The translations under genes and the position numbers were made by a program. Below, in pieces: positions 6,069 to 63,470 of a stretch of DNA of 64,000 nt (the stretch's first letter is position 1; every line of letters starts with the position of its first letter). The notes beneath the pieces are model-generated. The model made no database searches, had not been told where the DNA came from, and saw only the letters and a program-made list of their open reading frames with translations. The stretch spans positions 47,233-111,232 of the forward strand of contig JAUVZL010000001.1 of NCBI GenBank assembly GCA_030602565.1, written 5' to 3'. Source of the DNA: Candidatus Stahliibacteriota bacterium (lineage in GTDB: Bacteria; Hydrothermota; Tepidihabitantia; SM23-42).

Positions 6069-6135
6069 GTTTAGGTATTTACCCCATTTAGATAGTAAAC
6101 ATCTAACGGGGTTTAGGCATTTAGGTATTTGATTT
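6069..6135. repeat. CCTAAATACCTAAA-family repeat module (rc orientation) with embedded hairpin
   Basis: gtttaggtattta and gtttaggcatttaggtatttgattt flank the hairpin ccccatttagat...atctaacgggg. The same motif recurs at 12387, 28608 and 36771. Confidence 0.6.
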
Positions 6136-9125: not shown

Positions 9126-9167
9126 GTTAGGAAAAAAGGGGCGGATTTCCGCCCCTTTTTTCCTAAC
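9126..9167. terminator. bidirectional intrinsic terminator (42-bp perfect palindrome) between convergent hisS and S8 protease
   Basis: gttaggAAAAAAGGGGCGGAtttCCGCCCCTTTTTTcctaac forms a GC stem flanked by an A-run and a T-run. Confidence 0.7.
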
Positions 9168-11782: not shown

Positions 11783-12082
11783 ATGTTACGAATAAACGAG
11801 AACAATGAGGGACAAAATGAACATGCTCCCGAACTCGTCGTTGTACTCAGCACATTTAGTCTTGGTGACGTTGCAATCGTAAAATCAATACTTGATGCAG
11901 CTGATATCCAATACTTTTTCAAAGGTGAACGTTTTCTTGGTTTGGTCAAGCCATGGGCTGATCCAGCCAAGCTAATCGTCAAGAAAGCACAGGCTAAAAA
12001 GGTCAAAAGATTACTTAAAGACCTGAAACTACAGGACTGTAGTTTTTTCGCACCGTCTGGGAATAAAGGTGATACTACTTAG
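11783..12082 (+). CDS. DUF2007-like small protein (putative signal-transducing protein family)
   Basis: The pattern LVVVLSTFSLGDVAIVKSILDAADIQYFFKGE...LIVKKAQAKKVKRLL fits DUF2007. A strong SD is present. Length is 99 aa. Confidence 0.5.
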   Translation: MLRINENNEGQNEHAPELVVVLSTFSLGDVAIVKSILDAADIQYFFKGERFLGLVKPWADPAKLIVKKAQAKKVKRLLKDLKLQDCSFFAPSGNKGDTT

Positions 12083-12186: not shown

Positions 12187-12293
12187 TTGATTTTCTTGGC
12201 AGGTTGAGTATAATTTATATAGAAGAGGCATTATTGCTTTTGCTTCTTTCTTGAACCGCAAACCTGTCCAGTATTGGATGGGTTTGCGTTTTT
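12187..12293 (+). ncRNA. candidate small RNA (~70 nt) with promoter (TTGATT-16-TATAAT) and Rho-independent terminator
   Basis: The -35 TTGATT lies at 12187-12192 and a perfect -10 TATAAT at 12209-12214. The predicted TSS is near 12221. A terminator stem CGCAAACC/GGTTTGCG (12257-12288) is followed by TTTTT (12289-12293). There is no ORF between. Confidence 0.4.
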
Positions 12294-12318
12294 AGTACAA
12301 TAAACAAGTAAGTCATTT

Positions 12319-12378
12319 GAATCCCAAGGGATTGGAAGAGATCACTACGTGTTGGAATCCCAAGGGGATTGGAAGAGA
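12319..12378. repeat. tandem pair of 23/24-bp repeats, each containing the palindrome AATCCCAAGGGATT
   Basis: GAATCCCAAGGGATTGGAAGAGA (12319-12341) and GAATCCCAAGGGGATTGGAAGAGA (12355-12378) are separated by a 13-bp spacer. Confidence 0.6.
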
Positions 12379-12386
12379 GAATGTAT

Positions 12387-12423
12387 CAAATACCTAAACA
12401 CCTAAATTCCTAAATACCTAAAG
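12387..12423. repeat. CCTAAATACCTAAA-family repeat module
   Basis: The sequence reads caaatacctaaacacctaaattcctaaatacctaaag. Confidence 0.6.
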
Positions 12424-12635
12424 ACAAATTCCAAGAAACAAAAAGAAATGGCACTGCCTCTCGAAAAACTCGAGACCTTCGGCTGGAACAGTTTTAATTC
12501 CCTTCATTTTAAATCATTCCATTCGAAGAATCCATTCCAGTGTGAAACACTCATTTCCATACGAAGTATCTCTTCTATGCTTAGCATCATTTCTCTTTGC
12601 CCTTTGTGCTGGAAGGGAGCTGCGCTGGAAATATA

Positions 12636-12756
12636 GAAACGGAGAATTGGAGAAACGGTGAAACGGAGTATAGTGAGTATCAGAGAATATCGTATTCGTA
12701 AATCGTGCATCGTACTCGTAAAAAAACGATAATAACGGAACTAACGGACGAAACGT
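12636..12756. repeat. CGTATTCGTAAATCG-family dispersed repeat (copy 1), with GAAACGG heptamer repeats
   Basis: gaaacggagaattggagaaacggtgaaacggag...gagtatcagagaatatcgtattcgtaaatcgtgcatcgtactcgtaaaaaaacgataataacggaactaacgg is homologous to the copies at 36860, 61190 (rc) and 62262. Confidence 0.65.
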
Positions 12757-13117
12757 CTTTTAATAACTAAATTACTTAGTTACCTAATAACTGTTTTGTT
12801 CAGTTACTCAATAAATCGGATGACTACATCTATAGTGTAATGAATACAGAAATACTGGAGGTCAATGATCACCATAAGGAATAACCAACGCAGACGATTG
12901 AATGCCGGCTTTCCGAGCTGCTTTTTCCTTATTTTGCAATGCTTTCAAGCGTATTCGCCTTCGATTTCTTGGGTCTGATAATGGTTATTATGCAAACTTG
13001 ATAATTTTCGAGTTCTGATGACCAGCAAAAGGCTATTGTCAAAGAAACAAAATATCGCCAAATATCCACATTAAAACCGTAAAACAAACTTCCTGTTATT
13101 TTTGAAATCTTGGATCA

Positions 13118-13495: not shown

Positions 13496-13503
13496 GGTAT
13501 AAT

Positions 13504-13781
13504 CAGAAACTTGGACACATTGTTTAATAGACATTTTAGGAAACCCTCACCCTTACCCTCTCCCTTTCTAAGGGAGAGGGTGTCATTCTTTTTAGCTATC
13601 CTCTCCTCTCTGAGGAGAGGATAAAAGCCTGCCTTGAACCCTGAAAGTGTCATTCTGAACCATGCCCTGAACTTGTTTCATGGGTTGGTTCAGAATCTCT
13701 TCAGGGCAGGCTCTTTCCAGGGGTGAGGAGTTCATTTAATAAATTCCAAAATCAAGGGAGGAAGATATGTCTAAGTTTCTG
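13504..13781. mobile_element. MITE copy 1 (278 bp): 16-bp TIRs CAGAAACTTGGACACA / rc TATGTCTAAGTTTCTG, with 7-bp TSD GTATAAT/GTATAGT
   Basis: The left TIR is at 13504-13519 and the right TIR at 13766-13781. Flanking 7-mers at 13497-13503 and 13782-13788 match 6 of 7. The interior is packed with GA-rich palindromes (CCCTCTCCCTT..AAGGGAGAGGG, ATCCTCTCCTC..GAGGAGAGGAT) and a long imperfect hairpin, all enclosed by ccctcaccc/ggggtgagg. Confidence 0.65.
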
Positions 13782-13833
13782 GTATAGTACCAGTTCGATA
13801 GTTGTACAATTATGCAACTGTACAATTGTAATA

Positions 13834-14626: not shown

Positions 14627-14636
14627 TATCTAAAAC

Positions 14637-14840
14637 CAGAGACTTGGACACAAATTTTAAACTGCAATAGTATAAAATCCTCTCCCCTTGCGGGAGAGGA
14701 CAAAGGTGAGGGGTGTATTAAATTATGAAAAAAATCACCCTCCCCCTTACCCCCTCCCGTTAAGGGAGGGGAAGTATGATGGGTTTGGATTGATGTTGAT
14801 GCAGTTCAAATTTGCTATCAAAGATGTGTCCAAGTTTCTG
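14637..14840. mobile_element. MITE copy 2 (204 bp): TIRs CAGAGACTTGGACACA / rc TGTGTCCAAGTTTCTG with perfect 7-bp TSD CTAAAAC
   Basis: The left TIR is at 14637-14652 and the right TIR at 14825-14840. The TSD is at 14630-14636 and 14841-14847. Internal palindromes include CCTCTCCCcttgcGGGAGAGG and CCCTCCCgttaaGGGAGGG. Confidence 0.7.
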
Positions 14841-14849
14841 CTAAAACAT

Positions 14850-14895
14850 CATATCGATATATGTACAATTGTGCATATGTGCATATATCGATATG
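14850..14895. promoter_or_regulatory. pair of 10-bp perfect palindromes ATATCGATAT (candidate operator) upstream of the DUF3795 gene
   Basis: CATATCGATATATG (14850-14863) and its exact rc CATATATCGATATG (14882-14895) are separated by 18 bp that contain TGTACAATTGT. Confidence 0.4.
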
Positions 14896-25789: not shown

Positions 25790-25838
25790 TGATTTTTCGA
25801 TTATAAGGGAAAAGATTGCGAAGTCAAGACATGAACCA

Positions 25839-25960
25839 GTTAAATAGTTAAATGGTAATTGGTTAAATAAAACTCCGTTCAATAGCATATGTGATATTTA
25901 GTTATTTAACTTTTTAACCATTTCCCATTTAACCATTTATAACCATTCACAATTTAACCA
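25839..25960. promoter_or_regulatory. AT-rich region with phased AACCATT/AATGGTT repeats upstream of tRNA-Ala (putative UP-element/curved DNA or binding-site array)
   Basis: The sequence ttaaccatttcccatttaaccatttataaccattcacaatttaacca has repeats at 25916, 25931, 25941 and 25956 (10-15 bp phasing). Oppositely oriented copies lie at 25850-25866. Confidence 0.3.
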
Positions 25961-28599: not shown

Positions 28600-28607
28600 A
28601 AAAACCC

Positions 28608-28657
28608 CCTAAAATATAAATGCCTAAAAATCCAAAATACCTAAATACCTAAACCTA
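28608..28657. repeat. CCTAAATACCTAAA-family repeat module
   Basis: The sequence reads cctaaaatataaatgcctaaaaatccaaaatacctaaatacctaaacc. Confidence 0.55.
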
Positions 28658-28730
28658 GACACCAAAGATAATTCCCCCTTGCCAAGATTTGCTTTATTAC
28701 CATATGCTATAAGCGATAAGCCATATGCCA

Positions 28731-35945: not shown

Positions 35946-36770
35946 ATGCCTGAACTCCCTGAAGTCGAGACTATCAAAAGAGAGTTGAAGCCCAATATCA
36001 TTAATAAAAAAATCCTGGCATGTATCCCTTTGCGTAGTGATGTAATTGCTTACCCAAAACCAAAGACATTTTGTAGAGCAATCATTGACGAAAGAGTGAC
36101 TAATGTAACGCGCAAAGCCAAATACCTATTTCTTGAGCTCACCAATGAAAAGAAAATTGTCTTCCATTTCAGGTTGTCTGGTACTATCTCATTGAGAAAA
36201 CTACACGTTAAACCTGAACGTTTTACTAGGGTAATAATAAAGATCAACGGCTACCAGCTTTTCTTCAATGAACCAAGGGTCTTGGGTAGAATCTACCTCT
36301 TGAAAGGCAAAAAGAGATTGCCGTTTTTAAAAGGACTGTACAACCTCGGACTTGAACCGATTGCTGATGCATTCGATTTACCCTATTTCCGCAACAAAAT
36401 AAAAGGAAGAAAGGCGAAAATAAAAGCCTTGCTTCTTGACCAGAGTATCTGTGCCGGAGTCGGTAATATATATTCTGATGAAGCACTTTTCCATGCCGGA
36501 ATAAGACCCTTGCGCCGTGCTAAGCGTATAACGATCAGAGAAACCGCAAAACTTGTGAGAACTCTGAAACACGTAATACAAAAAGGGATAGATAATTACG
36601 GAACATCGGTTTCTGATTATCACCGAACCGATGGCAAAGATGGGAATTTTCAAAAATTTCTGTATGTCTACGGCAAAGAGGATGAACCTTGTAAAGTCTG
36701 CGGGACAAAAATTGTCTTGACGAAACTCGGCAACCGGTCCACCAGATACTGTCCTAAATGCCAGAAATAA
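35946..36770 (+). CDS. mutM: formamidopyrimidine-DNA glycosylase
   Basis: MPELPEVETIKRELKP N-terminal catalytic Pro. A C-terminal zinc finger CKVCG...CPKCQK is present. Length is 274 aa. Confidence 0.9.
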   Translation: MPELPEVETIKRELKPNIINKKILACIPLRSDVIAYPKPKTFCRAIIDERVTNVTRKAKYLFLELTNEKKIVFHFRLSGTISLRKLHVKPERFTRVIIKINGYQLFFNEPRVLGRIYLLKGKKRLPFLKGLYNLGLEPIADAFDLPYFRNKIKGRKAKIKALLLDQSICAGVGNIYSDEALFHAGIRPLRRAKRITIRETAKLVRTLKHVIQKGIDNYGTSVSDYHRTDGKDGNFQKFLYVYGKEDEPCKVCGTKIVLTKLGNRSTRYCPKCQK

Positions 36771-37050
36771 ATACAAATTCCTAAATACCTAAACCCAGCT
36801 CGTTCATAACGGGCTTGGGTAAAAATCCAAAATACCTAAATACCTAAATGAACCAGATCAACGAAGAAACGGAGAATATCGTATTCGTAAATCGTACTCG
36901 TAAAAAACACGATAATAATTTATCCCGTGGAATGCGACCCGCCCTGCCTGTCCCGTAGCGTCAGCGTACGGGGTGGAGTGTGCACACTATTCCATGGGGA
37001 GCATATTCCATTGGGACGGACTAAACGATACTAACGTATCAAACGGTATT
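36771..37050. repeat. composite intergenic repeat element: CCTAAATACCTAAA modules + CGTATTCGTAAATCG-family unit (copy 2) with ~55-bp internal insertion
   Basis: cctaaatacctaaa occurs twice, then ...gaaacggagaatatcgtattcgtaaatcgtactcgtaaaaaacacgataataatttatcccgtggaatgcga...ccattgggacggactaaacg. It is colinear with 12636-12756 and with the rc of 61190-61375. Confidence 0.65.
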
Positions 37051-37063
37051 TCTGCCCTGTCAT

Positions 37064-37090
37064 TGACAGCAAAAGAAAATTGACTATAGT
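37064..37090 (+). promoter_or_regulatory. promoter TTGACA-15-TATAGT positioned for leaderless valS
   Basis: TTGACA at 37064-37069 and TATAGT at 37085-37090. ATG 37097 lies 6 nt downstream and no SD is present. Confidence 0.4.
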
Positions 37091-37096
37091 TATGCA

Positions 37097-39730
37097 ATGG
37101 ATGAATTCGGGAGCAAATATGACTCTCAGGGCATTGAAGACCAATGGTATGAGTTCTGGCTGAACGCGAATCTTTTCACGCCTGATCCACATTCCAAAAA
37201 ACCACCCTATACAATTATGATACCACTACCCAATATTACGGGTCGACTCACTCTGGGGCATACTCTGAATAACTCTATCCAGGATATTCTTATCAGATAT
37301 AATAAACTGACCGGGCATGAAACCTTATGGATGATGGGCATGGACCATGCTGGTATCGCTACTCAAGTTGTTGTCGAAGATAAACTTGCGGAAAAGGGTA
37401 TTAAAAAAGAAGATATAGGTCGGGAGAAATTCGTCCGAGAAGTTTGGAAATGGAAAGAGGAATACGCTACAATAATCCGGAAACAACTAAAAAAAATGGG
37501 GTTTGCGCTGGATTGGTCGCGTGAGCAATTCACGTTCTCTGAAGATTATTCAAAGAAAGTAATCAAAATATTCGTTGATTTGTACAAGAAAGGACTTATC
37601 TACCAGGGTGAATACATCATTAACTGGTGTCCGCGTTGTCTATCTGCTTTATCTTCTGAACAGGTTGAGACTGAAGAAGAACTGGGTAAGCTTTATTATA
37701 TCAGGTATCCGATAATCGGTACCGAGAATTTCATCACGGTAGCGACAACCAGACCTGAAACTATGCTTGGTGATACCGGAATCTGCGTCAATCCAAAGGA
37801 CCGCCGTTATAAGAAACTCATTGGCAGTGCTGCCTTATTGCCGATCATGAAGCGCGCCATCCCCATTATCTGTGATGATTATGTTGATCCGGATTTTGGC
37901 ACTGGTGCACTAAAGGTCACGCCAGCGCATGATCCTTTTGACTTTGATTTGGCTAAAAAACACAATCTTGAATTTATCAATATCATGAATCCTGATGCGA
38001 CCCTCAATGAAAATGCCGAAGAATACAATACATTAGACCGTTATAAAGCACGCGCCAAAATCATAGTTGCTTTGGAAAAAGAGGGGCTGCTTGAAAAAGT
38101 CGAGAAATATAAGTTACCCCTTGCTAAATGTCAACGCTGTCATACCGCGATTGAACCAAGAATTAGCAAGCAATGGTTCGTTCGCATGAAACCCTTGGCT
38201 AAACCCGCCTTAGAGGTAGTAAAGAATGAGACTGTGAAGCTGTATCCAAAGAGGTGGGTAAACCTCTATAATCACTGGATGGAGAATGTTCGAGATTGGT
38301 GTATTTCCAGGCAACTCTGGTGGGGACACAGAATACCGGTGTACTACTGTTCAAAATGCTATGACGCAGAAAGCACAGAAGTCAACAAAACACGACTGAA
38401 TGCAGAGACAAAGAATCCAAAAGGTATGTTTGTCTCAACAAGTAAGCCAAAGAAGTGTCCAGACTGTGGTTCTTGTGATATTTATCAGGACGAGGATGTT
38501 CTCGATACCTGGTTCAGTTCATGGATCTGGTCCTTTGCAACGCTTGGTTGGCCAAGTAAAACAAAAGATTTCAAGCGTTTCTATCCAACCCAAACCCTGG
38601 TAACAGCTTGGGATATTATTTACCTTTGGGTTGCCCGCATGATCATGGCGGGTTTAGAGTTCACTGGGCAAATACCTTTTTCCAGTGTTGTATTCCACCC
38701 CATGGTCCGGGATAAAAAGCGTAGAAAGATGTCAAAAAGCCTGGGTAATTCTCCAGATCCAATGGATTTGATTGCCAAATATGGAGCTGACGCATTGCGT
38801 TACGGGTTACAGCTTATTACACCGAAGGAACAGGATGTTCTGTACTCTGAGAAAGCAATCGATGTAGGTCGGAAGTTCTGTAATAAGTTGTGGAATGCAG
38901 CCCGATTAGTCTGGATGAATCACAAGAACGATAATGAAACAGCACCATCAAAACCCTCAATATATGATGCTTGGATCATTTCAGAATTCAATCAATTCAT
39001 TAAGAATACTAACAACCATTTTTCAAACTTTGAACTAAATGCCATTGCTCGGGACATATACGATTTTGTCTGGCATACGTTCTGCGACTGGTATCTTGAG
39101 ATTATTAAAATCTGCCCGTCAAAAGATACCCCAAAATACCTGCTAAAACAAATCATAATTATGCTCCATCCCTATATACCTTTTATCACTGAAGAAATAT
39201 ATCACAAATTCAATTTCTCAAAAAAGAGCATACTTCTCGAGGATTGGCCAAAGACAACGACTGTGAAAACTGATATCGTAAATGTCCAAATCATGAAACG
39301 TTTGATTGAGGAAATCCGAAATATCCGTGGTCTCTTCAATATTAATCCGAAAGAGGAACTTCAAGCAATAATAAACACGAGAAAAGGTTTCAGGGATTTT
39401 ATAGAAAGAAACGTCGCGGTCTTGCAGGGGCTTGCTGGTCTTGAAGTCATAGAATATGACAAGACCCCGGATCAATCCGCGGCAAGTATTATTATGCCAG
39501 ATGTCGAATGCTATGTCGTACTTGCCGGTATTGATATAGCAAAAGAGAAAAAACGTCTGACAAAAGAAATAACCGCACTCTCAAAGAGAATCGATGAAAT
39601 TAAATACCGTTTGAATAACCCAAACTACATACGCAAAGCAACTGCTGAAGTCAAGCAACGCGAGCAAGAACGCCTCGAATGTTTTTTGAGGAAAAAAGAA
39701 GGAATTGTTAGAGCAATAGAAAAACTATGA
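37097..39730 (+). CDS. valS: valine--tRNA ligase
   Basis: Class I HIGH (PNITGRLTLGHT) and KMSKS motifs are present. Length is 877 aa with a C-terminal coiled coil. Confidence 0.95.
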   Translation: MDEFGSKYDSQGIEDQWYEFWLNANLFTPDPHSKKPPYTIMIPLPNITGRLTLGHTLNNSIQDILIRYNKLTGHETLWMMGMDHAGIATQVVVEDKLAEKGIKKEDIGREKFVREVWKWKEEYATIIRKQLKKMGFALDWSREQFTFSEDYSKKVIKIFVDLYKKGLIYQGEYIINWCPRCLSALSSEQVETEEELGKLYYIRYPIIGTENFITVATTRPETMLGDTGICVNPKDRRYKKLIGSAALLPIMKRAIPIICDDYVDPDFGTGALKVTPAHDPFDFDLAKKHNLEFINIMNPDATLNENAEEYNTLDRYKARAKIIVALEKEGLLEKVEKYKLPLAKCQRCHTAIEPRISKQWFVRMKPLAKPALEVVKNETVKLYPKRWVNLYNHWMENVRDWCISRQLWWGHRIPVYYCSKCYDAESTEVNKTRLNAETKNPKGMFVSTSKPKKCPDCGSCDIYQDEDVLDTWFSSWIWSFATLGWPSKTKDFKRFYPTQTLVTAWDIIYLWVARMIMAGLEFTGQIPFSSVVFHPMVRDKKRRKMSKSLGNSPDPMDLIAKYGADALRYGLQLITPKEQDVLYSEKAIDVGRKFCNKLWNAARLVWMNHKNDNETAPSKPSIYDAWIISEFNQFIKNTNNHFSNFELNAIARDIYDFVWHTFCDWYLEIIKICPSKDTPKYLLKQIIIMLHPYIPFITEEIYHKFNFSKKSILLEDWPKTTTVKTDIVNVQIMKRLIEEIRNIRGLFNINPKEELQAIINTRKGFRDFIERNVAVLQGLAGLEVIEYDKTPDQSAASIIMPDVECYVVLAGIDIAKEKKRLTKEITALSKRIDEIKYRLNNPNYIRKATAEVKQREQERLECFLRKKEGIVRAIEKL

Positions 39731-57833: not shown

Positions 57834-58391
57834 TCATTTAACCCATTTTACTTTACAACGTGCCTTATCAATGTTTGCATGCTCATCTTTGTACTTAGCC
57901 ATGACTTGTTCGGCAAACTTGTGCGGATCAATATCAAAGTCTTTCAAACCCTTTGTCTTCACCGGCGTATTATCAGACACAATATTAATACCAAAGTGTA
58001 TGAGTGAAGATAACGGGGTTACTGTTGCAATGGAAATCGACAGCTTGGCATCGCCATCATACAAATCACTACCTCGCCTTGTAATGTTAGTGTCACGGCA
58101 CATCTCATCCAAGACTTCGCCAATAATGGTGGTCAAGACAAGTTGCCTCAGTACTGCTTTTTCAAGATCCGTATCATGGTGTTCTATAATGAAATGCAAC
58201 ATCGACTCAGAGTATATTTTTGCATCGGCTTTGACATCTTCAATATCAGCCATCTGCTCAGTCGGAATATCACACTTGCCACAAAAAGCAATGATTGAAT
58301 CGCCAAACAAGTCAAATTCAGTATATGCATAATTGCTGTGTAATTGTGCACCAGTATAGGCTATCTCTTGCTTAATATATTTCGTTTTCAT
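57834..58391 (-). CDS. hypothetical protein (185 aa) translationally coupled between TPR gene and queE
   Basis: An ATGA overlap with the upstream TPR gene. No QueC/QueD/FolE motifs are recognised. Confidence 0.4.
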   Translation of the reverse strand: MKTKYIKQEIAYTGAQLHSNYAYTEFDLFGDSIIAFCGKCDIPTEQMADIEDVKADAKIYSESMLHFIIEHHDTDLEKAVLRQLVLTTIIGEVLDEMCRDTNITRRGSDLYDGDAKLSISIATVTPLSSLIHFGINIVSDNTPVKTKGLKDFDIDPHKFAEQVMAKYKDEHANIDKARCKVKWVK

Positions 58392-59844: not shown

Positions 59845-61085
59845 GGTTCAGTTATCTCCCCTTTCAGCGCTGAAGCCGCTACAGTCGCAGGTGATGCCAG
59901 ATAAATAAAAGCTTCAGGACTGCCCATCCGTCCCTTAAAATTGCGATTTGTCGTTGCCAGACAAACCTCTTCAGGAGCAAGTAAACCCTGATGTGCACCG
60001 AGGCAAGGTCCGCAACCTGGATTCAATAGAAGTCCACCGGCTCGGACAAAAATCTCAATGTAGCCTTCATGTAGAGCCTCAAGATAGACTCTGCGTGAAG
60101 CCGGGATCACTAATAACCGTGTGTCTGGATGTACTGTTTTACCCTCTAAAATCTCGGCTGCGGCAGCCAGATCTTCTAACCTCCCATTAGTACACGACCC
60201 GATTAATGCCTGATCAATCTTTAGGCCGGTTACTTCACTAACCGGTTTGACATTGTCAACTGAATGTGGACAGGCAACTTGACTCGTTAAGCTACTAACA
60301 TCGACATTCAATTCACCACTATATTCAACATCTTGATCAGGTAAGATAACCTGGAAATGCTTGTCGGTCCTCTGCTTTAGATAAGCTATGGTTTGTTCAT
60401 CCGGGGGCACAAACGCGACTTTTGCCCCCATCTCCATAGACAGGTTGGAAAGAACCAAGCGTGACGCGATAGTCATATGAGATATTATTTCACCATGGAA
60501 TTCTACTGCCTGGTAATTGGCTCCATCCGCACCCAATATCCCGATAATATGCAAGATAAGATCCTTTGCCGTTACACAAGGTTTGAATTTACCACTTACA
60601 TTAATCTTTATTGATTCTGGTACGCGCAACCATAGTTCTCCGGTTGCCCAAACGCCCGCCATTTCCGTAGCACCAATCCCGGTCGCAAAAGTGCCAAAAG
60701 CACCATGTGTTGTTGTATGAGAATCAGTGCCTACTAAGACCTCGCCAGGTAAATCATGCCCAAATTCCACTAAAACCTGGTGACAAATCCCTTCTTTCAA
60801 ATCATAGAAGTGTTTGATCTGCTGTTCTTTTACAAATGCCCGTAAACGACGATGAGTAGCTGCGGTCCTTTCACTATCTGCAGGTATACGGTGATCAAAG
60901 AGTATGACAATTCTCTCCTTATCCCAAACTTTTTTAACACCGATTTCATTAAACGACCTTAATACAACATCGGCATTTTCATGGGACATAGCCACATCAA
61001 CTCTTGCCATGACGATTTCGTTAGGAGATACTACTTTTTTACCTGACGCCTTAGCTAATATCTTCTCAGCGATAGTTTTATTCAT
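59838..61085 (-). CDS. aconitase-family dehydratase large subunit (LeuC-like, ~415 aa archaeal-type)
   Basis: N-terminus MNKTIAEKILAKASGKK. Cys ligand motifs are present (GSCTNGR, CGPCLG). Confidence 0.85.
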   Translation of the reverse strand: MNKTIAEKILAKASGKKVVSPNEIVMARVDVAMSHENADVVLRSFNEIGVKKVWDKERIVILFDHRIPADSERTAATHRRLRAFVKEQQIKHFYDLKEGICHQVLVEFGHDLPGEVLVGTDSHTTTHGAFGTFATGIGATEMAGVWATGELWLRVPESIKINVSGKFKPCVTAKDLILHIIGILGADGANYQAVEFHGEIISHMTIASRLVLSNLSMEMGAKVAFVPPDEQTIAYLKQRTDKHFQVILPDQDVEYSGELNVDVSSLTSQVACPHSVDNVKPVSEVTGLKIDQALIGSCTNGRLEDLAAAAEILEGKTVHPDTRLLVIPASRRVYLEALHEGYIEIFVRAGGLLLNPGCGPCLGAHQGLLAPEEVCLATTNRNFKGRMGSPEAFIYLASPATVAASALKGEITEPC

Positions 61086-61189
61086 CAGAAATCATTGTAG
61101 TCGCTCAATTCATTGAGCAGCCTGATAAACCTGTCCTGAACGCAGTTGAAGGATCAGGCAACTACATTTTTGAAAATCAGATTCATCAA

Positions 61190-61375
61190 AAGCGTTTAAT
61201 CCGTTAGTTCCGTCCCAATTGAATATGCTTCGCATTCCACGGGATAAATTATTATCGTTATTTTTTACGAGTACGATGTATCCCGATTTTTCATATTGAT
61301 ACATATAATGATCGGTAATCGAGGATCCCGCTTTGCGGGACGATTCACGAATACGATATTCTCCGTTTCGATCGT
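61190..61375. repeat. CGTATTCGTAAATCG-family dispersed repeat (copy 3, reverse orientation) with internal ~65-bp insertion containing hairpin TCCCGCAAAGCGGGA
   Basis: The rc reads cgatcgaaacggagaatatcgtattcgtgaatcg...tcgtactcgtaaaaaataacgataataatttatcccgtggaatgcgaagcatattcaattgggacggaactaacgg. Confidence 0.65.
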
Positions 61376-61480
61376 TTATCTGGGTTGTCTTCAGCCAAAG
61401 GCGTGCCTGCAGTCCGCCATATTGTGTGGCGGACGTGTCTTCAATCCGCCGTTGGTGGATGTGTCTCCAGCGCAGCGTGT

Positions 61481-62245
61481 TCATTCCGTTAAATCTCTTT
61501 CCCATGGTCCGTCGTAGGTAACTTCTTGTTCACACATACGGCGCATAGGTTTCTGCGTCGTCATTTCCTCGTACACATGTGCGATAAGACCAGCACATCG
61601 ACCAATTAAAAAGAAAGCTTTACCAAGTTTCCAATCAAACCCCATATCTGATATGATCGCGGCGATTGCGCCGTCGACATTTATGGGTAGTGCTTTTCCC
61701 TTAGCGAATTCTTCTTTCAGCGCAAGGCTCAGCTTCATGTGTTCTTTACTGATTTTTAAATCATCAGCCATTTCATAGAGCCGTTTGGTTCGCGGGTCGT
61801 TTTTATGGAGGCGATGACCAAATCCGGGCATGCGTCTACGTTGTTCTTTTAAGTCTGCCAATAATTTCTGTGCTGTTTGTTCAAAACTCCACTCATTTTT
61901 ATTCATCAATTTTACCCACTCCTGAAGGATTCTTGCACCATCTTCAATTGCTCCACCGTGGACATCACCAACTGCCAAAATTCCAGCAGCTACTGCACTA
62001 GGCAAAGGTACACCAGCTGAGGCAACGATGCGCGCGGCATGTGTTGAAGGTGGAGTAACACTGTGGTCAATTGAGGAAGTAATGATTGCATCGATCATTT
62101 TTGCTTCTTTTTCATCGGGCATTTCCCCCTTAATAAGTAAGAAAAAAACCGATGCAAAAGGAACAGTACCGATCAGATTCTCTTGTCGATACCCTCTCGT
62201 CACAATATGATCTGGTTCAACTTTTGAAATCTTTGTTTGCCACAC
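61481..62245 (-). CDS. citryl-CoA lyase / ATP-citrate lyase C-terminal (citrate synthase-like) domain protein
   Basis: WQTKISKVEPDHIVTRGY...LLIKGEMP...GFGHRLHKNDPR matches the CCL/ACL C-terminal domain. The start is GTG 62245 (MWQTKIS), with AAGGAGG 5 nt upstream. The listed TTG 62296 start would run through the repeat element. Confidence 0.7.
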   Translation of the reverse strand: MWQTKISKVEPDHIVTRGYRQENLIGTVPFASVFFLLIKGEMPDEKEAKMIDAIITSSIDHSVTPPSTHAARIVASAGVPLPSAVAAGILAVGDVHGGAIEDGARILQEWVKLMNKNEWSFEQTAQKLLADLKEQRRRMPGFGHRLHKNDPRTKRLYEMADDLKISKEHMKLSLALKEEFAKGKALPINVDGAIAAIISDMGFDWKLGKAFFLIGRCAGLIAHVYEEMTTQKPMRRMCEQEVTYDGPWERDLTE

Positions 62246-62261
62246 TTCTACCTCCTTAAAA

Positions 62262-62325
62262 ACGTACTCGTAAATCGTGCACCGTATTCGTAACAAATAC
62301 GATCTACGACATATGAATACGAATT
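62262..62325. repeat. CGTATTCGTAAATCG-family dispersed repeat (copy 4)
   Basis: The sequence reads cgtactcgtaaatcgtgcaccgtattcgtaacaaatacgatctacgacatatgaatacgaatt. Confidence 0.6.
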
Positions 62326-62449
62326 ATCCTCACATTTATTGCCTTCTTTTGTATTCTTCATTCTTCTCAAGCCATCCCCACATATTTCCCATCGCTCTTT
62401 GTCATTAATCGCCTTCTTAAGCCTTTTTCTGTACGTTCTCTGCGCCATC

Positions 62450-63343
62450 TTATGCCTTCTCATGCTTTGTTCTGCCTTCTAAAGCCCTCTTAATAAGTAC
62501 CGGTATCTCGCTCAGTGTTTCCGCAAGTATTGCGCCGTGCTTTTGTAAAGCCTCAATCTTGCTTTTCGCAGTACCCATATTACCCTCAATGATCGCACCA
62601 GCATGACCGAGCCGCTTACCTTGAGGTGCTGCCTTCCCTGTTATATAGGCAATAACTGGCTTTGACATATGTTCAATAAAAGGAGCTGCTAATTCTTCAT
62701 AAACCCCACCGATTTCACCGGCCATCACAACCGCATCGGTCCCAGGGTCATTTTCAAACAATCGCAATATATCCTCGTAGTTTGCTCCCAGGATTGGGTC
62801 GCCACCCAGACCGACTGAAGTCGATTCACCAAAGCCAGCAAGGTTTAGAGAATTTGCCAAATAATATGTCACTGCGCCGCTCCGTGCAACCGTACCTATG
62901 CGTCCAGGTTTGAAGGTGATTCTCGGCAGCATGCCAACGAGTGCTTTACCTGGTGAAATCACGCCCGGCGTATTGCCTCCTATAACAACGACGCCCTTTT
63001 CTTTAGCTTTTTGGCGTGCGTATAGCATATCGTGAATTGGGATGCATTCAGTTATCACAATAACCGTTTTAATACCGGCATCAACTGCCTCGAGTATTGC
63101 ATCCTTAGCAAAACGTGGCGGTACCCAAATGCTTGATACAGCAGCATCTGGATGTTCTTCCATGCACTGGTGTATAGTATCATACACTCTTACACCTTCA
63201 ACTTCCTGACCACCTTTGCCCGGCGTTACCCCACCAGCAATCTTTGTCCCGTATTCGAGCATGAACTTTGTGTGGAGCGATGCATTTCTTCCAGTAATCC
63301 CCTGGACTATCGTTTTCGTTTCATTATCAATAATAATACTCAT
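62450..63343 (-). CDS. succinyl-CoA synthetase alpha-subunit-like (CoA-binding + CoA-ligase; ACL alpha-like) protein
   Basis: IVQGITGRNASLHTKFMLEYGTKIAGGVTPGKGG matches SucD. The phospho-His loop GHAGAI is present. No beta-subunit gene is adjacent. Confidence 0.85.
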   Translation of the reverse strand: MSIIIDNETKTIVQGITGRNASLHTKFMLEYGTKIAGGVTPGKGGQEVEGVRVYDTIHQCMEEHPDAAVSSIWVPPRFAKDAILEAVDAGIKTVIVITECIPIHDMLYARQKAKEKGVVVIGGNTPGVISPGKALVGMLPRITFKPGRIGTVARSGAVTYYLANSLNLAGFGESTSVGLGGDPILGANYEDILRLFENDPGTDAVVMAGEIGGVYEELAAPFIEHMSKPVIAYITGKAAPQGKRLGHAGAIIEGNMGTAKSKIEALQKHGAILAETLSEIPVLIKRALEGRTKHEKA

Positions 63344-63430
63344 AATTGCTTAGTTAAATAATTCAATCATATTTCCACCTTTTATTTCATGCGTTTTAGA
63401 TACTTAATATAGCCATTTATACCTTTGAGC

Positions 63431-63470
63431 AATTTAACCTTTTAACCATATAACCATTCAACCATTATAG
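63431..63470. promoter_or_regulatory. tandem AACCATT repeats upstream of the sucD-like operon (same motif family as 25916-25960)
   Basis: The sequence reads aatttaaccttttaaccatataaccattcaaccattatag. Confidence 0.3.

Follow-up and report, generated by a model that had tools for sequence, protein, structure and literature searches.

Dispersed mosaic repeats, arrays of short units and very small mobile hairpins are all known kinds of repeat. A contribution of repetitive extragenic palindromic (REP) sequences and bacterial interspersed mosaic elements (BIMEs) to mRNA stabilisation was reportedly described by Newbury et al. in 1987. The small dispersed repeats (SDRs) of Elhai et al., from 2008, are said to be hairpin-forming, mobile units of tens of nucleotides that encode no transposase, and their insertions are said to be known from presence or absence inside other repeats, at specific short targets. 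SDRs of Nostocaceae are credited to Elhai et al. 2008 in PMC5861425. A REP is defined as an imperfect palindrome of 20-40 nt with a conserved GTAG or CGTC head (PMC3733652), and a BIME as REPs in regularly alternating orientation with conserved linkers between them (PMC2817692); mRNA stabilisation and protein binding have been proposed or shown for both (PMC2817692, PMC3733652, PMC3184786). Here we describe a family of modular intergenic elements, or composites, in a 64,000-nt stretch of a Candidatus Stahliibacteriota bacterium (the window; contig JAUVZL010000001.1, positions 47,233 to 111,232), one copy of which lies between fpg and valS (fpg>valS). The bacterium belongs to candidate phylum WOR-3, an almost uncultured phylum on which the literature we found consists of metabolic and taxonomic papers, with none on repeats or non-coding DNA.

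Judged by sequence comparison, these elements are a real, lineage-specific family of mosaic, non-coding intergenic elements of the WOR-3 ('Ca. Stahlbacteria'-related) clade. The copy alignment (A1) and word maps of 12 loci give the module order of a composite: a hairpin-bearing GAAGACAC array or an octamer array, a linker, a core of CGTA words, a run of xAAACG words and sometimes TTACT octamers. A sequence-only reading of the window had proposed a dispersed, modular intergenic family with clean nested indels, and self-BLAST, alignment A1 and the empty and filled sites described below bear this out. Its motifs (the CGTA-word core, CCTAAATA octamer arrays and flanking GAAACGG/xAAACG words) are present at all six loci that it listed, and the significant matches of the window to itself are confined to those loci. 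They pair 36891-36937 with 61230-61277 (96% over 48 nt, E 7e-14), 36853-36895 with 61340-61383 (E 4e-8), 12683-12735 with 36872-36918 (E 3e-5), 12691-12725 with 62263-62297 (E 1e-4), and 28625-28653 with 36820-36848 (29/29 identical, E 4e-8). The word CGTAYTCGTAA, allowing up to one mismatch, occurs nine times against 1.4 expected (~7-fold; 0 of 100 dinucleotide shuffles reach nine), and the CCTAAATACCTAAA double octamer, allowing up to two, 12 times against 0.75 expected (16-fold; no shuffle matches the count). All family copies in the window are intergenic.

The family is not limited to the window, and its similarity exceeds low complexity. Copies occur in at least three related metagenome-assembled genomes (MAGs) of WOR-3, at loci L022 and L079 (JBARXC01), L108 and L121 (Ca. 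Stahlbacteria CSMAG_2146), and L120, L127, L128, L129, L171 and L173. Homologues of the flanking LeuC-like and Fpg proteins carry the names candidate division WOR-3, Ca. Stahlbacteria or TA06, and a LeuC at 95% identity is encoded in GCA_030609135.1 (Ca. Stahlbacteria bacterium CSMAG_2146). Module order is conserved, and loci and genomes have non-repetitive stretches in common: a 48-nt match covering TTTATCCCGTGGAATGCGA, a 47-nt array plus linker, and the 44-nt insert E2. MAG JBARXC01 (L022) has two tandem copies of the 24-mer GAGAATATCGTATTCGTAAATCGT, a 24-mer scan of metagenomes matched a single contig (L120), and a pseudo-protein search with the spurious ORF across a composite returned only three orthologous loci. 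The same strain has been assembled independently from short reads (Logan SRR14872667; its ValS is 100% identical to that of the window), and contigs of that assembly end at window positions ~6094, ~12395 (L130), ~36978 and ~61125, each inside a module, which fits a multi-copy or polymorphic family. Two scans of viral contigs found unrelated simple arrays only, with no extended similarity and no phage link. Rfam, at the gathering threshold and at E<=1, matched no family over three composite regions; only tRNAs pass threshold, and the sub-threshold matches are eukaryotic snoRNA or miRNA noise.

The fpg>valS copy, on the + strand, illustrates the anatomy. The fpg stop codon lies at 36770, and the 5' module (36778-36848) comprises a CCTAAATA array (36778-36793), a 26-nt CCC...GGG hairpin insert (36794-36819; fold z -2.8) and a second array (36820-36848). 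Positions 36822-36866, which are 3-47 of a 47-nt query of array plus linker, match L121 9825-9869 at 95.6% over 45 nt. In alignment A1 and self-BLAST, linker and core together span 36849-36918: the linker TGAACCAGATCAACGAAG (36849-36866), with consensus (A/C)CCAGAT(A/C)AACGA across copies, stands between the 5' array and the CGTA-word core AAACGGAGAATATCGTATTCGTAAATCGTACTCGTAAAAAACACGATAATAA, whose CG-initiated words (36867-36918) read AAACGGAGAATAT-CGTATT-CGTAAAT-CGTACT-CGTAAAAAACA-CGATAATAA. A 98-nt GC-rich block follows (36919-37016), consisting of the insert E3 (TTTA+TCCCGTGGAATGCGA...AGCATATTCCATTGGGA; arms 36919-36937 and 37000-37016) with the insert E4 nested in it (36938-36999). The 3' xAAACG words CGGACTAAACGATACTAACGTATCAAACGG (37017-37046) are conserved in L127, and the valS promoter is next downstream.

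The copy between CCL and leuC (CCL>leuC), on the - strand, starts at the CCL stop codon with a 5' module (61385-61480) of ACACGCTGCGCTG and a CTGRAGACAC array with inserted hairpins, homologous to arrays in L022, L079, L108, L129 and L171. Linker and split core occupy 61249-61384 (linker 61369-61384, core 1 61341-61368, the insert E1 61281-61340, core 2 61249-61280), and the 3' part (61193-61248) holds E3 (61213-61248) and xAAACG words (61193-61212). On the + strand, 3' of a 99-aa ORF (11783-12082), lie a CCTAAATA octamer array (12386-12422) and a further copy (12636-12793) made up of a GAAACGG array (12636-12668), a core (12683-12735), xAAACG words (12736-12755) and a TAATAACT/TAGTTACT array (12761-12793), a 3' module order repeated in L079 and L022. 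Of the single colinear copy proposed at 12387-12756, the array at 12386-12422 and the core and words at 12683-12755 stand; ~210 nt of non-family sequence lies between them. The CCS>CCL spacer carries a short CGTA-word copy (62258-62329, + strand) whose end, on the gene strand, abuts the upstream side of the CCL Shine-Dalgarno sequence, and the same motif has the same orientation to a ribosome-binding site (RBS) in L079 and L108. Solo CCTAAATA arrays stand just upstream of the RBS of a PNP/deoD-like gene (6070-6131, - strand, TTTAGGTA if read on the + strand; a 30-nt CCCC...GGGG hairpin at 6082-6111 divides them) and directly upstream of a DJ-1/PfpI gene (28605-28663, + strand; gene on the minus strand, start 28599). 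Both interrupted CCTAAATA arrays have a CCC...GGG hairpin at the same register, with differing sequences.

Across loci, a composite often starts with ACACGCTRCGCTG and continues as a CTGRAGACAC word array, accompanied or replaced by GAGAAACGG or CCTAAATA octamers; GAGAAACG octamers are likewise seen in 5' arrays, and TAATAACT/TAGTTACT octamers sometimes lie 3' of the xAAACG words. The longer array units hold perfect 6-8-bp hairpins, and a description of the array as a constant word plus always a hairpin proved only half right, the 12-nt units being unfolded. Alignment A2 shows the 5' array to be homologous at five loci, drawn from four to five genomes; its linkers do not vary, and two of its stem pairs are compensatory. 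TRF reports period-8 arrays at 6112, 12388, 12635, 25838, 25904, 28617, 36775, 36830 and 63413, and the spacers of the window generally hold such arrays, of several word types. Head-to-tail intergenic arrays of 5-11-nt units occur above chance, as in known short-unit tandem arrays; tandem repetition nevertheless fails to explain the whole element, as core, linker and E1-E4 are unique sequence common to loci.

Clean empty and filled sites document four small hairpin inserts of 24-62 nt, some nested and some lying in hairpin loops. Three of the four end TCCCG...CGGGA; E1-E3 have terminal inverted repeats (TIRs) of 5-11 bp of the form TCCCG.../...CGGGA, and a 24-nt insert at site B ends TCC...GGA. 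E1 (60 nt, 61281-61340, TCCCG...CGGGA) splits the core of the CCL>leuC copy; it is the hairpin block that the sequence-only reading had seen as ~65 bp at 61300-61365, with corrected bounds. Its site is empty (GAATCG^TACATCG) in L120 and L173, which are otherwise ~99% identical to the window composite, and an E1-like hairpin in L128 shows a compensatory stem change from CCCGC/GCGGG to CCCAC/GTGGG. E3 (36 nt, TTTA+TCCCGTGG...TTGGGA) fills AATAA^CGGA in the valS and leuC copies, and the empty site, ACGATA(A/G)TAA^CGGA, is found in L127 and at window 12727-12739. E4 (62 nt, 36938-36999) sits in the loop of E3 in the valS copy only, where the two fold as nested hairpins, and Logan contig L001 ends inside it; E3 occurs without E4 at 61213-61248 and in L120 and L173. 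A ~55-bp block said to be present only at 36920-36985 is thus unique as regards E4 and not as regards E3.

The conserved leader hairpin GCCTGA^TTTATCAGGC has site B as its loop (61130-61153, - strand, for the 24-nt insert), and four alleles occur there (A3): L120 and L173 have no insert, the window has one of 24 nt, L121 has the 44-nt E2 and L171 a hairpin of 21 nt. E2 is found again, in inverted orientation, within an E1-like element of another genome, at its valS locus (L128), and TTTA stands on both sides of E2 in L121 and L128. There is no target-site duplication (TSD) at the E1 (GAATCG^TACATCG) and E3 (AATAA^CGGA) sites. By folding, the inserts are hairpins closed by their own termini (z -2.2 to -3.1) and the core is unstructured (z +0.4). 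No RAYT gene was seen in the window and related-locus sequence. As a separate observation, the leader of the LeuC-like gene (homoaconitase/IPM dehydratase large subunit; 61086-61192, - strand) is ~100% conserved in five lineages in which the coding DNA differs by 4-7%; it has two hairpins, no obvious Shine-Dalgarno sequence and no Rfam match (A3), and is possibly an uncharacterised cis-regulatory leader.

Comparison of orthologous spacers reveals turnover by whole modules. Between CCL and leuC, the window, L120 and L173 have one composite in common; L121 has GAGAAACG octamers with the CCTAAATA array and linker of the window valS locus and no core, L171 has GAGAAACG words and a hairpin array and no core, and L122 (LeuC 84% identical) has A-rich words only. 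Between fpg and valS, L127 (Fpg 96%) retains core and 3' words, differs in its 5' half and lacks E3, and L128 and L129 (Fpg 78%) show other arrangements, including a 33-nt hairpin unit in four copies. In the flanking genes L173 is as distant from the window as L121 and L171 are, yet it has the window's composite; the distribution of alleles is therefore incongruent with the flanks. Since the indels are polymorphic among close relatives, turnover is ongoing. These alignments show word arrays that expand and contract, hairpins that precisely enter or leave word arrays, hairpin loops and one another, and whole modules exchanged between copies at the same locus.

Against this turnover stands a high conservation of the retained sequence. 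With E1 set aside, the CCL>leuC composite differs at 1/228 positions from L120 and 3/228 from L173, whereas in CCL and leuC, the flanking genes, the divergence at third codon positions is 7-9% and 15-27%, respectively (binomial P ~1e-7 and ~1e-12). Conservation of the composite is ~10-fold above that of synonymous sites, and mismatches return within 5-28 nt inside the CCL coding region. The CGTA motif of L079 and L108 is likewise identical over ~50 nt against a background of 89% identity. These comparisons suggest either that the composite is under purifying selection or that the allele was exchanged recently and precisely. They contradict the earlier description of the copies as decaying.

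Composites have a consistent polarity. They read in the direction of the upstream gene at five independent loci: window 12.3-12.8 kb (after the 99-aa ORF), fpg>valS, CCL>leuC, L022 (after an unannotated 378-aa ORF) and L079/L108. In four of the five the composite starts within ~30 nt of the upstream gene's stop codon; in the fifth, at window 12.3-12.8 kb, it starts after a predicted intrinsic terminator (12257-12293). Assignment of the copies to 5' regions does not hold for the long composites, which follow the orientation of the upstream gene and begin at its stop codon or close to it, and the valS promoter (TTGACA-16-TATAGT, 37063-37090; conserved in relatives) lies downstream of the composite. 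That gene is apparently leaderless or nearly so, with 6 nt between the end of its -10 element TATAGT and the ATG at 37097, and L127, L128 and L129 have the same arrangement. Short solo modules of CGTA and TTTAGGTA words lie 0-15 nt upstream of the RBS at several genes, namely window CCL, a secreted protein in L079/L108, and deoD-like, DJ-1 and DUF3795 genes.

The order CCS-CCL-aconitase is conserved in relatives, with a CCS-CCL spacer of 9 bp in L122 versus ~200 bp in the window and with other repeats filling it in L121, L171 and L173. A search for sigma-70-like promoters ahead of leuC and CCL, on the strand of these genes, was negative. The conserved order and the lack of a detected promoter place the CCL>leuC and CCS>CCL copies inside a reductive tricarboxylic acid (rTCA) operon. 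No intrinsic terminator (GC-rich hairpin plus T-run) occurs in 36700-37120 or 61060-62460. A role of composites as terminators or promoters was considered and rejected, the only promoter found being that of valS, downstream of the element. Canonical terminators are found elsewhere in the window, for example at 9126-9167 and 12257-12293. The former lies where the hisS and S8-peptidase genes converge; a perfect 20-bp inverted repeat with A and T runs at its sides, it is a classic bidirectional intrinsic terminator and shows that canonical terminators are used in this genome. At 12187-12293 (+ strand) a strong intrinsic terminator, with a 14-bp stem and TTTTT, comes ~45 nt after a promoter-like TTGATT-16-TATAAT; the two could belong to a small RNA of ~70 nt, or the terminator may simply be that of the upstream 99-aa ORF.

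The reading that we favour, with confidence about evenly balanced, is that the family is a lineage-specific mosaic repeat system akin to BIMEs, BOX elements and heptamer arrays, transcribed and under constraint. By analogy with REPs, BIMEs and TAACTGA arrays (PMC2817692, PMC3733652, PMC4679880), composites would be co-transcribed with their host genes, two of them inside the CCS-CCL-aconitase operon, where no promoter was detected, and would probably act in cis on the mRNA. Hairpin arrays may form barriers to 3'-exonucleases or processing, and unstructured word arrays may serve as protein-binding platforms; the composites would thereby adjust how stable, or how well translated, neighbouring cistrons are relative to one another, as has been shown for REPs and BIMEs in enterobacteria. 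Candidate movers of the small hairpins are a hairpin-recognising single-strand transposase acting in trans and template switching during replication. A bolder reading, which we consider doubtful, sees a hitherto unrecognised class of RNA cassettes, strand-oriented and lying between cistrons and in 3'-untranslated regions (3'-UTRs), on which purifying selection would be strong. A mobile hairpin element of a new type, 24-62 nt long, would remodel them, and its precise insertion into loops and word arrays would produce the nested hairpin-in-hairpin structures. If it were true, WOR-3 bacteria would combine a clade-wide layer of post-transcriptional control with an insertion mechanism at the level of single-stranded DNA or RNA.

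Several points weigh against a transcribed, constrained and mobile system of this kind. The 12.3-12.8 kb composite lies downstream of the terminator at 12257-12293 and so may not be co-transcribed, and no hairpin is followed by a T-run, so that the hairpins are not canonical terminators. Stem G-U and A-C asymmetries give no consistent strand signal, and the 12-nt units of the GAAGACAC array form no stable hairpins. The high conservation could come from recent allele exchange instead of function. No transposase domain was found among the scanned window ORFs or the Pfam-annotated genes of the inspected loci. A scan of genome contigs (596 Gb) with the 16-mer CGTATTCGTRAATCGT gave 118 matches, mostly by chance, with ~4 real ones (L022, L079, L108 and perhaps L093). 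Co-transcription and any RNA-level role, finally, are what we infer by analogy.

It is possible, though on the unlikely side, that the family is instead a host regulatory network, in which word arrays bind global RNA- or DNA-binding proteins and the composites are cis-regulators whose mobility is incidental; the words would be CGTA, TTTAGGTA and GAGAAACGG with its Shine-Dalgarno-like GGAG, and the candidate partners S1, Csp, CsrA-like factors or a nucleoid protein. Such a network would account for conservation far above synonymous sites, for the fixed orientation of solo words close to the RBS of several genes, for CGTAYTCGTAA pairs spaced exactly 20 bp apart in four copies and for GGAG recurring every 8 nt in the L121 and L171 arrays, and it has a precedent in TAACTGA heptamer arrays before start codons, for which a post-transcriptional regulator has been proposed (PMC4679880). 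It sits poorly with the radically different module content of orthologous loci whose flanks are equally diverged (window, L120 and L173 versus L121 and L171) and with the presence of the same modules beside functionally unrelated genes, in both orientations relative to the downstream gene; it also requires a binding partner for each of at least five word families, and no candidate protein was identified. The sequence-only reading had instead seen decaying elements of MITE (miniature inverted-repeat transposable element) or REP type, of which a 39-bp inverted repeat might be the termini; taken further, this view has non-autonomous transposons that drift neutrally and lose pieces by deletion, with that repeat at the full-length ends. 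Dispersed intergenic copies with nested indels, inserts with 5-11-bp TIRs, the TTTA flanking E2 at two sites and a true TIR-bearing MITE-like family nearby (13497-13790 and 14631-14850) would all suit it. The composites themselves, however, lack TIRs and TSDs, the short TIRs being confined to the small inserted hairpins, of which E1 and E3 also lack TSDs; the 39-bp repeat flanks a single copy, with arms that are leader plus RBS; identity between orthologous copies is 98.7-99.6%, against a divergence of 7-27% at neutral sites; and a steady orientation with the upstream gene is unexpected of decaying transposons. For the composites this reading is largely refuted, and we regard it as improbable.

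Two further explanations fare worse. That the composites are independent small-RNA genes, or small RNAs derived from 3'-UTRs, with conserved array and core as the mature trans-acting RNA, would agree with the high conservation, the hairpins and the fixed polarity downstream of genes, and a promoter-like site followed by a terminator does lie just upstream of one copy (12187-12293). Yet neither promoter nor terminator brackets any composite, Rfam gave no match, the core is unstructured, and length and content vary greatly between copies, which leaves the idea very improbable. Least credible of all is an absence of homology, in which AT-rich simple sequence arose convergently by independent slippage. 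TACCTAAA-type arrays do occur alone in AT-rich viral contigs that are unrelated, a Bacteroidales MAG (L033) has TCGTAAA arrays, and most 16-mer matches in the 596 Gb are chance, but the unique stretches common to loci and genomes and the conserved module order refute convergence for the core, E1-E3 and the linkers; it is possible for isolated short word arrays.

The 39-bp inverted repeat (11744-11782/13118-13156) is a feature in its own right. Its arms are 95% complementary and end in an A-run plus GGGGGAGAGG (AAAAAAAGGGGGAGAGGT), followed by a start codon, the ATG of the real 99-aa ORF on one side and the TTG of a 15-codon remnant on the other. It lies more than 360 nt from the one family copy it flanks. 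The proposal that it shares a segment with the family holds to the extent of one 11-mer in common with the copy at 12675, and the repeat resembles GAGTAACGG-type words of L127 at 15/17 positions; it may on this evidence contain a family word, and it looks like a duplicated leader and RBS, not like transposon ends or a family terminus.

Other repeats share the window and the related loci. The separate MITE-like family (13497-13790 and 14631-14850) has 16-17-bp TIRs, CAGARACTTGGACACA...TGTGTCYAAGTTTCTG, and GC-rich internal hairpins (A4), and beside the left end of the 13497-13790 copy stands a perfect TTGACA-17-TATAAT promoter (minus strand, 13495-13467) upstream of a 61-aa zinc-ribbon-like ORF. 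Two spacers (25838-25960 and 63413-63466) hold octamer arrays of another word family (TTTAACCA/CCATTTAA and AGTTAAAT), and positions 28700-28730 hold an array of the CCATAAG heptamer. The DUF366 and radical-SAM genes abut or overlap in the window (57834-57837); in L121 (13262-13466) and L171 (13508-13713) a ~200-bp insert separates them, in which a 17-mer array of CGCAGGATCAC precedes GATACTGCAA words whose hairpins vary, a module family of the same style. Another dispersed repeat, GGGTTTGGGTAAGGATGCTGGAAC...TTCCAAACCC, fills two spacers, CCS-CCL in L173 (1-120) and DJ-1/tRNA-Gly in L129 (3180-3260), the latter being where the window has a CCTAAATA array. In the Bacteroidales MAG CAYOZZ01 (L033, 5700-6140), arrays of TCGTAAA, TCGTATT and TTCATAA heptamers flank three GC-rich hairpin copies (CCCCTCTTATCCCCTAAAGGGGAAGAG); this combination of word array and hairpin in another phylum is probably convergent. 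A 25-nt pair at 12318-12378 gives a sub-threshold Rfam DR match (E 0.5-0.8), and a CRISPR was rejected for it, as there are only two copies, 37 nt apart, with a 12-nt spacer and no cas genes. CsrA-sponge, PUF-like, IHF, DnaA-box and rut-site readings of the composites were each a poor fit, judged from the letters alone.

The elements matter in practice because they fragment short-read MAGs and yield spurious gene calls. ORFs of 78-131 aa across the composite are called as genes in public assemblies (P0241-P0243) and are artefacts of the non-coding repeat; those spanning composites include the 131-aa ORF at window 61110-61505 (- strand), L121 9697-10017 and L171 10001-10237. More broadly, module-level turnover, precise insertion at one loop in four lineages and conservation ~10-fold better than at synonymous sites are, together, unlike neutral junk or classical MITEs. 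The family offers a tractable case in which to study the movement of very small repeats and their possible effect on expression within an operon for carbon fixation (rTCA).

Among described systems, the REPs and BIMEs of enterobacteria and pseudomonads resemble the WOR-3 family in being high-copy (here counting the window and related loci), extragenic, often intra-operonic and transcribed (here by our reading), and in being mosaics of palindromic units and conserved linker motifs. Like BIMEs, the 12 mapped loci combine a limited set of motifs differently at each locus. The name REP nevertheless does not fit: the WOR-3 palindromes have TCCCG/CGGGA or CCC/GGG termini and stems that differ in sequence, with no GTAG/CGTC head and no alternating orientation. 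Unlike in BIMEs, the modules of a composite all have one orientation, and its hairpins are separated by direct CTGRAGACAC words; the elements consist mostly of unstructured arrays of 7-8-nt words and have no sequence similarity to REPs or BIMEs. Pneumococcal BOX elements (boxA-boxB(n)-boxC) are likewise ordered, modular, intergenic and transcribed (presumably so here), with variable internal units and whole-module variation (PMC3049150). Their modules, however, are 45-59 nt long and pair into one long stem, whereas the WOR-3 elements are word arrays with independent small hairpins, and phylum and sequence differ.

Cyanobacterial short tandemly repeated repetitive (STRR) heptamers, long simple sequence repeats (LSSRs; Mrazek 2007) and the TAACTGA arrays of Beggiatoaceae, Cyanobacteria and Bacteroidetes are, like the WOR-3 arrays, intergenic tandem units of 5-11 nt that often stand a few nucleotides before a start codon or RBS, in one orientation and with mixed word types per spacer, that vary by unit-increment indels and at which assemblies break (PMC4679880). 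The dominant WOR-3 period is 8 nt, not 7, and its arrays lie within an ordered composite with non-tandem core and linker and nested hairpin inserts; its TTACT octamers hold GTAACTGA-like words but are not TAACTGA arrays. The small inserts are close to SDRs as these are reportedly known, being very small and hairpin-forming, encoding no transposase and showing up by presence or absence inside other repeats and at specific short targets. They differ in their TCCCG...CGGGA termini, their length of 24-62 nt, their targeting of hairpin loops and word arrays and their unrelated phylum. With MITEs they have short TIRs in common, and E2 is flanked by TTTA at two sites; the composites, unlike MITEs, have neither TIRs nor TSDs, E1 and E3 lack duplications, no parent insertion sequence is known, and the copies are conserved, not decaying. 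What appears to be undescribed, in a family with no known sequence relative, is the combination of an ordered, oriented composite with loop-targeted nested hairpin insertion and strong conservation.

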